Assembly (NCBI GenBank): GCA_038227875.1
Contig: JBBRPR010000051.1
Coordinates: 1-64,000, forward strand
Length of the DNA: 64,000 nucleotides
Source: Planctomycetota bacterium
GTDB taxonomy: Bacteria; Planctomycetota; SZUA-567; H5-PLA8
Direction: 5' to 3'
Shown: positions 7,482-38,941 of the stretch, piece by piece
Layout: every line of letters starts with the position of its first letter
How positions within the stretch are numbered: the stretch's first letter is position 1
Program-made: the position numbers and the translations under genes
Notes under the pieces: generated by a model
Seen by the model: the letters and a program-made list of their open reading frames with translations, nothing else
Databases searched by the model: none
What the model was told of the DNA's origin: nothing

Positions 7482-10400
7482 TTAGCGGATCTTCCATACT
7501 TTCGCGTTGGCATTCTTACGCGTGATGAAGATGTACCGACCGCCGTCGAGATGTTCGTCCTTCAGATCCATCTGCAGCGAGAGATTCAGGTCGACGTTGA
7601 TCACGTCCTTGCCGGAGAGCGGCAGGTTGCTGCCGCCCAGGCCCGTGGCCGGAACCTTGAGCAACTGCAGGTTGAAGATGCCGGTGTTGAAGTCGATCGA
7701 GAACTTCTTCAATCCGGAGATGCCGGCGCGGCCGACGTATTTCAAATTGTTGTCGATGCCGCGGAATTGTCCCGACGGCACGCTGACGGTGTAGGTGCCG
7801 ATCTTGAATGTGAACTGCCCCGTTTCTGACGGCAGGAAGAAGCCGCCGTTGGGCCGGGAGATCTGGCCCTTGATCGAATAGCTGTGCACGGCCAGACCGT
7901 TCTTGCCCTGGATGGCCTGCTTCGCGCTGAACTTATTGATGAGGAACGAGCCGGAAACTTCCTTGCCCGCGCCGAGGAACGCGTAGGTTCCCTGCCCTGC
8001 CTTGTCCTGCGTGGCGCGGTAGGACATGCCCTGCGTACACGTGGCGCTGAACGGTCCGATGGTCACCGTGATGGGGACGTTGACGATCACGGCCGGCTTG
8101 ACGGTCTGGTTTTTTGCGCCGAGGTTATCGAAGTTGGCGCGCAGATCGTCCTTGTTGGATTGGAACACAAACTGTCCGCTGCCGTTGCTGACGCTGAATT
8201 GGACCAGCGGCGTCAATCCGGCATCGGACTTGAAATTGCCCTTGGCGTCGAGCGTGAACGGGTGGCTGACGGAGCCCACTTGAACACTGCCGGCCAGACC
8301 CGTGAGGCTGGCGGTGACCGCGGAGAGATCGACGAAGCCGCCGACGCGCACGGCATCGTTGTTGGTGTTGGTGAAGTCCAGGTCGGCGATGATCGAATTG
8401 ATAAAGAGGCTTGGCACCAGGTTGGGCGAATTTTCGACCGGCGTGCCCACCTGGCTGGAGGTGCCCGTGCCCACCCCGCCTGCGCCACCGCCGACGACGA
8501 TCAGCACCGTCTGCAGGACGCTGTACGCTCCCTTGGTCAGTTTCAGCTGCGCGGTGAACGTGCCGTTGATCTTGTAGGTATGCGAGACCACGGACGTCGT
8601 CGCGGTCGTGCCGTCGCCGAAATCCCATTGCAGACTGTCGGAACTTCCCGTCGAGGCGCTGGCGTCGAACGAGACGGTCAGCGGTGCGACGCCGGAGGTC
8701 GGCGACGCGGAAATCACGGGGACCAGCGCCGGTCCGGCCGAGCCGGCGACGGTGACGTCCACCAACGCCGCGCCGACATCGTGAGCATCGCCGGGCTGCG
8801 TGGGCGCGAGACGCCCGTCGAGCCACGCGACGAGAAACAGATTGTTGGTTTGCGCGGCGACGGCGCTGCGCAGGATGCCTTGCGTGCTGGTGTCGATCTG
8901 GAATGGAATCGGATCCTGATCGACGCCGTCAAAGCTCACGCGCTTGCCGAGGATATGGTAGACCTTGCTGTTGACGCGTTCGTTGCGCAGGAAGAGCCAG
9001 CCGCTGGGCCCGGAGGTGACGGGCGGGAATTGATCGGCGCCGGTTCCGGTCGGTCCCTGCCCGACGATGGCGAAAACGCCCGAGGGCGGCGTGACGACGC
9101 CGGCCGTCGATTCCTGATGCCGGTAGATCGAACTGTTCACGGTCTGATCGTAGGAGGAGAGAATCTGCCACGCGCCGTTGGCGAAGGTGACGCCGATGGC
9201 GCGTCCGAATCCGCCGTCGACCTGCCGATCGGTAAACAAACTCGTGCCAAAGGGATCGCGGATCGTGCCGTCCTGGCCAATGCGCACGGAGCGCGTGAGC
9301 ACCGGCGACTCGGTCTGCTCGCGGTAAATCAGCAGCGTGTCGCCGCTGGGCTTCTGCGAGGAGATGAACAGCAGCACCTGATTGGGCGTCTGCGAATTGG
9401 AGGGCAGCGCCTGCTGCGGCGTGACCACGCCCTGGGTCGTGCAGCGGGCGTAGAAGATCTGGCTGCCGCTGGTCTGGTTGACGGGCGAGTCCTGCCAGCT
9501 GACGAGGAAGTCGGTGCCGTTGAAATCGACGAGGGGAAATTCGGGGACCTTCGCGGTCGTCGGTGCGATCAGGAAATCGCTGCCGCCGAGCAGCGTGCCG
9601 GTGGTGCTGATGATCGCGCCGCGGATGCCGGGTCCCACCTGGCGGTAGTCGGAGAAGACGACCAGCCAGTTGGCCGAGCCGTCGTAGGCGACTTCGACGC
9701 GCTGAAACTGGTAGGGCTGGGGAAAACCGGTGACGGCGGAGATCGCGAACGGCGCGGAGACGATGCCCGAGGACGAAACGATCGCGCCCAGCAGTTGCGG
9801 CGCGGCGGGATTGGTGATGTCGTCCCAGACGACGAGGTAGTTGTTGTTGCCTGGCGCAACCGTCGGGCCGCCCACGGAACTGGTGGCGCCGCTGGTGGTG
9901 ATCAGGAAATCCGCGCCGACGAGCGGGTCGACATCGATCGGGTAGAGCGCCGATTCCAGGAACGATTCGGGAATGGCGAAGCGGACGCTGCGGCCGTCGG
10001 CCAGGAGCGTCGGTTCGATGCTGATACCGTGCTGAGCCGAATCGCGGACAACGATCTGGCCGTAGCGCGCACCGAATGCGCCTTCGGCATCGAGAAACGA
10101 AACGCCACCAGCGCGGTTGGGGCGCGGAGGCCGGGCGCTGAGATTGCGGGCGGAGAGATCGCAGATGAATTCCATCGCGCCGGATCCGGCGACCGCGTTG
10201 TCGAAGGAGAAATTCTGCTCCACGCCATCGCCGCGGGGCTTGTAGCGTTCTTCAAATCCCGGCGCGCGCCAGAAACTGATTGCGCCGTTGCCGTCGTCGA
10301 CGGCGTCTTCCGTCGCGGCTTCCGTATCGGTTGCGCGGTCGAAGACCACGTTCGCGCCGCGCTTGACGCTGCGCAGCCGGACCTGCACTTCGGCGCTCTT

Positions 10401-10781
10401 GCCGGACTTCATGATTGGGTGGTACTGCAGGCCTTCGGCGGCCGTCAGCCGCGCCTGGTAATGGGAGGTTTTGACGTCGTAAACGCCGTCGCGGACTTCC
10501 ACGAATGCCGGCGATTCCATCGGACCGACGGGCGTCTTCAACGTCGAGAGCGTAGCCGGCGCGGCTTTCAACACGCGCCCCTTGTCGAGAATTTTCGGCT
10601 TGGCAGGCGCAGGGTCTTTTTGTGTGACCGTCCGGACAGCCGGTTCCGCAGGCAGGATGGATGGAGCGTGAAGAGGCCGGGGTTGCAGCAGCGCCGCTGC
10701 CGTACCTACGACCACTGCCAGGATGCAGACGAGGAGTTGAACCCGACGCGAAACCGATCGCTTCAAAACGCCAACCTCCAT
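7482..10781 (-). CDS. Large secreted/surface PKD-domain protein (1099 aa)
   Basis: N-terminal hydrophobic segment; YPIDVDP-ending N-domain; repeated (Y/W/F)LV(V/S/A)(W/F)xD blades; PKD (WDFGDG); C-terminal domain shared with two other proteins in the window. Confidence 0.85.
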   Translation of the reverse strand: MEVGVLKRSVSRRVQLLVCILAVVVGTAAALLQPRPLHAPSILPAEPAVRTVTQKDPAPAKPKILDKGRVLKAAPATLSTLKTPVGPMESPAFVEVRDGVYDVKTSHYQARLTAAEGLQYHPIMKSGKSAEVQVRLRSVKRGANVVFDRATDTEAATEDAVDDGNGAISFWRAPGFEERYKPRGDGVEQNFSFDNAVAGSGAMEFICDLSARNLSARPPRPNRAGGVSFLDAEGAFGARYGQIVVRDSAQHGISIEPTLLADGRSVRFAIPESFLESALYPIDVDPLVGADFLITTSGATSSVGGPTVAPGNNNYLVVWDDITNPAAPQLLGAIVSSSGIVSAPFAISAVTGFPQPYQFQRVEVAYDGSANWLVVFSDYRQVGPGIRGAIISTTGTLLGGSDFLIAPTTAKVPEFPLVDFNGTDFLVSWQDSPVNQTSGSQIFYARCTTQGVVTPQQALPSNSQTPNQVLLFISSQKPSGDTLLIYREQTESPVLTRSVRIGQDGTIRDPFGTSLFTDRQVDGGFGRAIGVTFANGAWQILSSYDQTVNSSIYRHQESTAGVVTPPSGVFAIVGQGPTGTGADQFPPVTSGPSGWLFLRNERVNSKVYHILGKRVSFDGVDQDPIPFQIDTSTQGILRSAVAAQTNNLFLVAWLDGRLAPTQPGDAHDVGAALVDVTVAGSAGPALVPVISASPTSGVAPLTVSFDASASTGSSDSLQWDFGDGTTATTSVVSHTYKINGTFTAQLKLTKGAYSVLQTVLIVVGGGAGGVGTGTSSQVGTPVENSPNLVPSLFINSIIADLDFTNTNNDAVRVGGFVDLSAVTASLTGLAGSVQVGSVSHPFTLDAKGNFKSDAGLTPLVQFSVSNGSGQFVFQSNKDDLRANFDNLGAKNQTVKPAVIVNVPITVTIGPFSATCTQGMSYRATQDKAGQGTYAFLGAGKEVSGSFLINKFSAKQAIQGKNGLAVHSYSIKGQISRPNGGFFLPSETGQFTFKIGTYTVSVPSGQFRGIDNNLKYVGRAGISGLKKFSIDFNTGIFNLQLLKVPATGLGGSNLPLSGKDVINVDLNLSLQMDLKDEHLDGGRYIFITRKNANAKVWKIR

Positions 10782-38400: not shown

Positions 38401-38941
38401 CGCTGATGTAAAGGTTGTGGGTGTAACCCACGTCGCCGTAGCCGTTGTCGTAGAACTCGCAGTGTTCAATCAAGATCGTGCCGCTGCCATTGAGAATGCC
38501 ATCCTGGCATTGGTGAAAATAACAATTGCGCACCGTCAAGCCGGACCCTTGAGCCCGGATGCCGGCGCCGTTGCCGGAAGCGCAGACCGCATTCGCGAAT
38601 TCGATGTTCTCGACGGTCAAATTTGAGCCGCCGCTTTCCTGGTCGAAGATGCCCTTGCCGTTCATGTCGACACCAAACGCATCCAGCTTCGCTCGCCCGC
38701 CCACGCCGCGAATCGTCAGATTGCTGGTATTGATGAACGTCACCACGGAATTGCCCGTGTACGTGCCGGCGTCGATTTCAATCGTGTCGCCGCTGTGCGA
38801 CGCAGCGACGGCTGAATTGATGGAGGTGTACGTGCGAGAAGGTCCTACTTGCAACGTCGCCGCGTGCGAATTCGAAGCCGCGAGCGCCGCCGCCAGAATC
38901 ACGAACGCGAGAGCTTGGATTTTGATTTGTTGCATGCGCAT
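35411..38941 (-). CDS. Secreted multidomain protein: right-handed beta-helix, CnaB-like and InlB-B-like repeats, PKD, Gly-Thr tract, C-terminal domain
   Basis: Signal peptide (SHA-A), [34 protein letters not shown] repeats, WDFGDG; start could be 38941 or 38935. Confidence 0.87.
35891..36328 (-). repeat. Coding hexamer repeat encoding ~146 aa of (Gly-Thr)n, with three perfect 36-bp copies at 36111-36218
   Basis: Read directly; + strand unit gttcccgtgccggtccccgttcccgtgctggttcct. Confidence 0.95.

Follow-up and report, generated by a model that had tools for sequence, protein, structure and literature searches.

A cationic C-terminal module on about 100 proteins of a Planctomycetota genome is a candidate sorting or envelope-retention domain

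The window analysed here is a stretch of 64,000 nucleotides (nt) from a Planctomycetota bacterium (assembly GCA_038227875.1, contig JBBRPR010000051.1, positions 1 to 64,000), contig C51 of a 9.34-Mb genome of 176 contigs that is 88% complete. Three of its genes encode the dissimilar proteins P0001, P0002 and P0003, in which a preliminary description had noticed, by eye, one related C-terminal module, and had proposed it as a candidate signal for sorting or anchoring. Open reading frame (ORF) calls and Pfam searches bore out this layout. All three genes exist as ORFs, and each protein carries a PKD domain followed by a module of ~150 residues, whose coordinates agree with those read by eye to ~20 nt. 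The features are listed below, with lengths in amino acids (aa), isoelectric points (pI) and, for the module, E-values from a profile hidden Markov model (HMM) built without the three proteins (leave-out HMM).

7482..10781, minus strand: P0001 gene, 1099 aa (ORF and translation)
8496..8720, minus strand: PKD domain of P0001, residues 688-762 (Pfam PKD_4, E 1.3e-13; PKD, 4.8e-11)
7977..8435, minus strand: module in P0001, residues ~783-935, internal, pI 5.1; leave-out HMM E 2.5e-12
7485..7976, minus strand: terminal extension of P0001, ~164-168 aa, basic, pI 10.0, C-terminus K.WKIR
33077..33189, plus strand: start codon and signal peptide of P0003 (frame-1 translation), in a frame that differs from that of the body
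33133..35409, plus strand: body of P0003, longest ORF, 758 aa, with six He_PIG immunoglobulin (Ig)-like repeats, the PKD domain and the terminal module
34738-34947, plus strand: PKD domain of P0003, residues 536-605 (Pfam)
34966..35406, plus strand: terminal module of P0003, residues 612-758, pI 10.1, C-terminus ...GKSGAAK; leave-out HMM E 3.8e-36
35411..38956, minus strand: P0002 gene, 1181 aa from a TTG at 38956; probable ATG start at 38941
36347-36586, minus strand: PKD domain of P0002, residues 791-870 (Pfam)
35890..36320, minus strand: Gly-Thr repeat linker of P0002, ~140 aa, between PKD domain and module (translation)
35414..35878, minus strand: terminal module of P0002, residues 1027-1181, pI 10.2, C-terminus ...GSGTFKN; leave-out HMM E 7.8e-32

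P0001 consists of an N-terminal hydrophobic signal or anchor, a cargo of ~590 aa, the PKD domain, the internal acidic module and the basic terminal extension. P0002 is composed of a signal peptide, a beta-helix-like N-terminus, three Flg_new_2 repeats, the PKD domain, the Gly-Thr linker and the terminal module. The cargo of the three proteins had been described as different in each, which holds for the He_PIG repeats of P0003 and the beta-helix-like region of P0002, the latter with a weak NosD-like match in NCBIfam. The cargo of P0001 (8742-10511, minus strand), previously called propeller-like, has no Pfam match, and neither has any other part of this protein outside the PKD domain. Strong orthologues of this cargo (N-terminal 590 residues; 34-58% identity; proteins of ~1100-1216 aa) occur only in family f1, and the rest of the phylum yielded weak repeat-like matches only. 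P0001 orthologues of 1100-1137 aa are present in the same family. The linker of P0002 is made of almost pure Gly-Thr repeats, and none of the 99 module proteins found in this genome has a longer low-complexity run (150 aa). The final residues of P0001, P0002 and P0003, at least 150 in each, matched nothing in Pfam or NCBIfam.

Pairwise comparison recovered part of the likeness that had been read by eye. BLASTP aligned P0002 with P0003 (26% identity over 151 columns, E 2e-8) and P0001 with P0003 (23% identity over 137 columns, E 6e-4), but the pair P0001 and P0002 was not significant (best E 0.22). The by-eye blocks alone are therefore thin for P0001, which was tied in through the family profile. 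When each tail was used as a phmmer query against all six-frame ORFs of the genome, dozens of long ORFs were matched at their ends. The leave-out HMM was built from 49 copies on other contigs, with the three proteins and the P0001 paralogues excluded; it scored P0003 at 3.8e-36, P0002 at 7.8e-32 and P0001 at 2.5e-12. A scan of 53,153 six-frame ORFs with this HMM yielded 99 domains, and a control with the sequences reversed yielded none. A P0001-type profile aligned with the module family at a probability of 99.7% (E 9.8e-26, hhalign). By sequence comparison, the shared module of the three proteins is thus confirmed, and its family is far larger than the preliminary description saw.

The HMM assigned one copy of the module to each of 99 ORFs, and a separate profile search of the genome gave 113 matches. 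In 92 of the 99 the module ends no more than 10 residues from the stop codon; the other seven, P0001 included, continue for 166-182 residues beyond it. The module is borne by 95 of the 7093 crude genes of the genome (~1.3%), and 71 of the 99 proteins meet a crude signal-peptide rule. The earlier expectation that a profile would retrieve many C-terminal copies on exported proteins was borne out, with ~100 copies in the genome lying nearly all at the extreme C-terminus of signal-peptide proteins with unrelated cargo. A Pfam survey of 40 module proteins identified GH44 (two proteins), Peptidase_S8 (two), GSDH (glucose/sorbosone dehydrogenase) and NHL and Kelch propellers, together with beta-helix/NosD, the carbohydrate-binding modules (CBMs) CBM6/35, PATR, DUF4394, Laminin_G_3, He_PIG, MBG_2 and Flg_new_2. 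A PKD domain lies upstream of the module in 34 of these 40. Just upstream of the module, a TSP3-like calcium motif was found in 22 of the 99 proteins and a low-complexity run of at least 15 residues in 18.

An export signal was assigned to all three proteins by the preliminary description. It is evident in P0002, and the hydrophobic N-terminus of P0001 could be either a signal peptide or an anchor that is not cleaved. The gene of P0003, previously given as one frame from 33077 to 35409, is not continuous, the signal peptide (ATG at 33077) and the body lying in different frames. Measured against orthologues and against contigs from two other runs, the window lacks 19 nt behind 33189, a deletion that separates the two parts, and the export signal of this copy is therefore found only in another frame. 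The orthologues P0155 and P0156 (782 aa) read continuously from signal peptide into body, and their modules are 70-73% identical to that of P0003. At this point the contigs of runs X2 and X4, from another study, are longer by 19 letters, and X1, probably the source run, agrees with the window. The frameshift reflects either a deletion at the level of the strain or an assembly state that is reproducible.

Diverse cargo, a single copy per protein, an extreme C-terminal position and ~100 candidate substrates per genome recall the type IX secretion system (T9SS) of Bacteroidota, and the module could be an export signal read by an outer-membrane translocon of comparable kind. It might then be cleaved and replaced by a covalent anchor. 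In that case the charge would either be incidental or contribute to recognition. The order of cargo, Ig/PKD domain and C-terminal domain (CTD) resembles that of T9SS substrates, as does a conserved Lys near the end. The T9SS type A CTD (Por_Secre_tail, TIGR04183/PF18962) also forms a beta-sandwich at the end of Sec-exported proteins whose cargo is unrelated, frequently after an Ig or PKD domain, and marks tens to >100 substrates per genome; in the T9SS a sortase removes this CTD and the protein becomes attached to anionic lipopolysaccharide. It also has conserved basic residues near its end, as the module does. The differences are that the module has no sequence match to this CTD, belongs to another phylum and is strongly cationic. 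In addition, the T9SS CTD comprises 70-100 residues, compared with ~150 in the module, which is modelled with 11 strands and one helix. Solved T9SS CTDs are seven-stranded Ig-like sandwiches. The Por_Secre_tail models PF18962, TIGR04183 and TIGR04131 matched none of 41 module copies at E <=1 and none of the three full proteins. The sole Por_Secre_tail match in the genome (C31:64867-65019, minus strand; 25.9 bits, E 8e-5) is internal to a 2259-aa protein that itself terminates in the module.

The charge of the module sets it apart from the proteins that carry it. Over the 99 module proteins, its median pI is 10.1 (>9 in 92), and that of the rest of the protein is 5.0 (<6 in 87); the median net charge is +11 in the 41 aligned copies. 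The last residue is Lys in 59 of the 92 terminal copies of this genome; for the crude gene calls overall the figure is 15%. In the top 150 out of 2768 representative sequences from public data, 148 copies are terminal, and of these 107 end in Lys and 15 in Arg. Where a further domain follows the module, the charge is found in that domain. The 23 P0001-type tails compared, taken from this genome and its relatives, have a median pI of 6.2 in the internal copy and of 9.8 in the terminal extension, whose end has the form K.W.LR. Because the basic pI resides in the new terminal domain and not in the internal copy, positive charge tracks terminal position, not sequence family.

The frequency of terminal Lys (64-72% of copies) raises the idea of a covalent peptidoglycan tether through this residue, like that of Braun's lipoprotein, by which enzymes would be kept in the large planctomycetal periplasm. 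YkuD L,D-transpeptidases, which such a tether might use, are present in the genome. However, 30 of 31 related genomes have YkuD genes irrespective of the module, 28-36% of the copies end in another residue, and nothing else speaks in favour of a tether, which we regard as very improbable.

The extension of P0001 offers a further view of the terminal domain. It was found only behind a module copy, in genomes of families f1 and f3 (apart from two marginal matches), and it has no match in Pfam beyond scattered single weak ones. It had been suggested that these residues, ~160 by the earlier count and 168 here, are a second, diverged copy of the module. Their sequence likeness to the module is weak (E 1.6e-4, probability 51%, hhalign). 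AlphaFold2 (AF2) predicted the P0001 tail as two sandwiches with the same strand order (predicted local distance difference test, pLDDT, 87.8), and the weak structural neighbours of the extension are those of the module, namely proteins of the late embryogenesis abundant (LEA)-2 type (TMEM106B), FlaF and archaellins. The extension is thus probably a diverged duplicate of the module, as judged from profile comparison and models.

To place the module itself among known folds, we modelled it, in the copy of P0003, with AlphaFold2 from the 41-copy alignment (pLDDT 94.8; predicted template-modelling score 0.86). The predicted structure is a sandwich of eleven strands with one short helix, in which the last residues form the final strand. 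Foldseek returned no structural match at E <=0.001. Major histocompatibility complex class II was considered as a fold neighbour and set aside (E ~2e-3, TM only 0.36). In VIA-align, Arabidopsis LEA14 (1xo8) gave Z 7.1 over 116 residues (root-mean-square deviation 3.8), which is within the background range of the tool, and FlaF (5tug; Z 7.1, 98 residues) and the luminal domain of TMEM106B (8b7d; Z 5.9-6.1, 119-123 residues) are at chance level for the search. S-layer domains reached Z 6.5 over only 71-78 residues. Of the structural neighbours, the LEA-2 type proteins (1xo8, 8b7d) and archaeal FlaF (5tug) have the longest coverage, of the module and of the P0001 extension alike; they differ in having an identity of 4-11%, no sequence-family match and Z at chance level. 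The comparison with known structures that the preliminary description had proposed therefore gave background-level neighbours only, and no T9SS CTD was among the 50 matches listed by Foldseek or VIA-align, a listing that does not exclude one.

Sequence searches agreed with the earlier view that the module is not a characterised family. No Pfam or NCBIfam family matched the 41 copies consistently, the best matches being those of single members (E 6e-4 to 0.9), and the pre-peptidase C-terminal (PPC) domain PF04151 matched one of the 41 at E 0.9 only. A profile search of PDB sequences gave a best E of 0.36. The neighbours of the module in the ESM Atlas are unnamed, mostly planctomycetal clusters, and no account of the module was found in full-text literature, supplements aside. 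We regard its domain family as new, and its functional kind as a known one.

A CBM-sized sandwich, as predicted here, with a strong positive charge could also serve as a substrate- or matrix-binding module, CBM-like or adhesive, that ties secreted proteins to external anionic polymers such as acidic or sulfated polysaccharides, humics or DNA, and not to the cell that made them. It is carried by glycoside hydrolases, CBM-bearing proteins and peptidases, and a porphyran-binding CBM is among its weak structural neighbours (Z 5.0). On the other hand, CBMs are not limited to protein ends and are often repeated, whereas the module is single, and terminal in 92 of 99 proteins. Most of the cargo is not carbohydrate-active, there is no conserved aromatic platform, and no CBM family in Pfam matches any of the 41 copies. 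We consider such a role unlikely.

The range of the module was examined at three scales. Among 1.84 billion representative proteins, the profile matched 2768 at E <=0.001 and 539 at E <=1e-30, and in the best 150 of the 2768, 148 of 156 domains are terminal. Twenty matches were looked up, and both of those with an organism name come from metagenome-assembled genomes (MAGs) labelled 'Planctomycetota bacterium'. Among 31 relatives, this genome counted, 17 carry the module, including 14 of 16 in family f1 and both members of f3; it is absent from the relatives in f2 (0/1, G017), f4 (0/6), f5 (0/4) and f6 (0/1). The number of copies per module-bearing relative ranges from 1 to 101, and three f1 genomes that are 91-93% complete have one (G002) or none (G007 and G010), compared with 15-113 in the rest of f1. 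A sample of 301 genomes from the phylum contains 29 with the module at E <=1e-5; outside f1 it occurs in families f28, f40, f60, f65, f87, f90 and f100, with 1-10 matches each (no more than 12 scored). A pattern scan for occurrence outside the phylum suggested two loci, one of them in an Opitutales MAG, and neither was confirmed by HMM. So far, in the samples searched, the module appears by sequence to be limited to part of Planctomycetota, in line with the narrow clade that had been expected.

The preliminary description anticipated a co-occurring outer-membrane translocon. None was found, nor a sortase or receptor, beside the genes or among the candidates tested (YkuD, Omp85, secretins and T9SS parts). 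The models of the SprA translocon and the PorU sortase (TIGR04189, NF033707) had no match in the 88%-complete genome, in a search with no positive control that does not prove absence. A survey of the neighbours of the 95 module genes revealed no conserved secretion machinery; the neighbours are mainly regulators, including extracytoplasmic function (ECF) sigma factors of ~490 aa, AraC regulators and histidine kinases. Within the window, no secretion-like gene lies near the three genes. Neither Omp85 nor secretin counts separate genomes with and without the module. The secretin GspD seemed at one stage linked to copy-rich genomes; it belongs to a canonical, complete-looking type II secretion system (T2SS) operon (C60:33342-44678; ATPase, platform protein, pseudopilins and a 768-aa secretin), and the link was rejected because orthologues occur in module-free families and are missing from the module-bearing genomes G004, G006 and G012. 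P0001 was likewise considered as a core component. Its orthogroup is limited to f1 and its extension to f1 and f3, both narrower than the module, and therefore neither is a general partner.

For an export signal of the T9SS kind, these results are unfavourable. No gene is a conserved neighbour of the module genes, neither the T2SS secretin nor the Omp85 and secretin counts follow the module, and related genomes differ between 1 and >100 copies. The Por_Secre_tail models matched no copy, and SprA and PorU gave no match in a search without positive control. We judge this explanation to be doubtful, though it is the main rival of the reading favoured below. The proposal of an export or surface-attachment system made by the preliminary description is supported in part, by the many C-terminal copies, the diverse cargo and the narrow clade; no machinery was found among the candidates tested, and any mechanism would be conjectural.

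The search for partners bears also on a dockerin-like role, in which the module would bind a receptor that is part of a scaffold or anchor protein, for instance a repeat like cohesin or a copy of the module's own fold that is acidic. Dockerins are small calcium-binding helical repeats with a known partner, cohesin. Like the module, the dockerins of cellulosomes are single C-terminal modules on many secreted enzymes of one genome, and their linker is often calcium-binding or of low complexity. Acidic copies of the fold do exist, in P0001-type proteins and in the metagenomic proteins P0024, P0048 and P0083 (~490 aa), in which a signal peptide and a ~190-residue domain precede two modules in tandem. 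The latter were tried as receptors and rejected, having no orthologue in this genome, and the P0001 orthogroup and extension are confined to f1 and f3, whereas the module is wider. No receptor candidate was found. The module, a predicted beta-sandwich, gave no Pfam dockerin or cohesin match in the 41 copies or the 40 full proteins, and the TSP3-type calcium repeats are located in the linker, not in the module. We judge a dockerin-like role to be quite improbable.

Some further genes were observed in the course of the neighbour survey. In the genome, at least four genes for ECF-type sigma factors, with products of ~480-490 aa that have a long C-terminal part without assignment, each adjoin a gene for a FeeM-type N-acyl amino acid synthase. 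Three of these pairs are direct neighbours of module genes. The pair lies at 19554-20990 (minus strand) and 21083-21853 (minus strand) in the window, and at C102:10613-12974, C13:120248-122523 and C15:55723-58339. An 869-aa ORF at 4851-7457 of the window (plus strand) is convergent with P0001 and has no Pfam match. At 51793-59695 (minus strand) lies an ordinary efflux operon, made up of two adjacent genes for AcrB-type resistance-nodulation-division transporters and one for a membrane-fusion protein.

The reading that we favour, tentatively and with a probability of roughly 0.4, is that the module is a C-terminal sorting or envelope-retention domain of Planctomycetota that acts by electrostatic retention. 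Because charge follows terminal position, electrostatic retention is suggested at least as much as a T9SS-like export signal, and it is favoured here because, in addition, spacers are common and no machine was found. Under electrostatic retention, Sec would take the proteins across the inner membrane by means of their N-terminal signal peptides. The terminal beta-sandwich, whose net charge is about +11 and whose free C-terminus is mostly a Lys, would then hold the acidic cargo on an anionic part of the envelope, for which lipopolysaccharide at the outer-membrane surface, peptidoglycan or an acidic polysaccharide are candidates. A stalk would be provided by the PKD domain together with the linkers, which are flexible Gly/Thr runs or calcium-binding. 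The principle has a parallel in Listeria InlB, whose basic GW modules at the C-terminus keep this secreted protein attached, non-covalently and through charge, to an anionic polymer of the envelope. GW modules differ in having an unrelated fold, in occurring as repeats on a Gram-positive wall and in another phylum, and in that the binding of the present module is what we infer.

Several observations weigh against retention by charge. In this genome 7 of the 99 copies are not basic, and the tandem proteins P0024, P0048 and P0083 carry two module copies with pI <7. The conserved columns of the module (D26, F58, L60 and G64) look structural, and therefore no binding site is evident; the structural neighbours, with a best Z of 7.1 in VIA-align, are at background level. 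Of the 99 proteins, 28 fail our home-made signal-peptide rule, some of them owing to contig ends, non-ATG starts or frameshifts. Moreover, the strict C-terminal position and the conserved terminal Lys would fit a recognition signal for a translocon equally well, and that the module binds, where it is localised and what its target is are matters that we infer. Retention and export signal are not mutually exclusive; a module that holds proteins on the envelope may also be recognised for crossing the outer membrane.

A 2026 article (PMC13524802) describes the Akkermansia sulfatase Amuc0953 as a cell-bound enzyme with a T9SS-like CTD, and suggests a comparable system in this bacterium of the Planctomycetota-Verrucomicrobiota-Chlamydiota (PVC) group, which is without a known T9SS. 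The module proteins likewise come from the PVC group and end in a C-terminal domain, and the proposal lends some weight to an export signal. The two can be compared by description only, and there the CTD of Amuc0953 is called T9SS CTD-like, which the module is not detectably.

Planctomycetota might possess a CTD-dependent system for outer-membrane transport or attachment, analogous but unrelated to the T9SS, in which the module would be the address tag of up to ~100 substrates per genome; we hold this idea with considerable doubt. In a bolder variant, the terminal Lys would tie the proteins covalently to peptidoglycan and so stock the large periplasm with degradative enzymes.

The envelope of planctomycetes is unusual, and these bacteria are believed to break down polymers at it or within it. 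We know of no account of how their many large exported proteins are sorted. The scale of the family, with one tag on ~1.3% of the genes of a 9-Mb genome and 2768 sequence clusters in public data, gives it weight in this respect. A domain model would label the ~150 C-terminal residues of thousands of proteins now called 'PKD domain-containing' or hypothetical, and the defined set of substrates offers an entry point to a binding partner or recognition factor of the tag. Surface display in Planctomycetota is a possible use of the tag and, if a dedicated machinery exists, the tag would belong to a new pathway of secretion or attachment.

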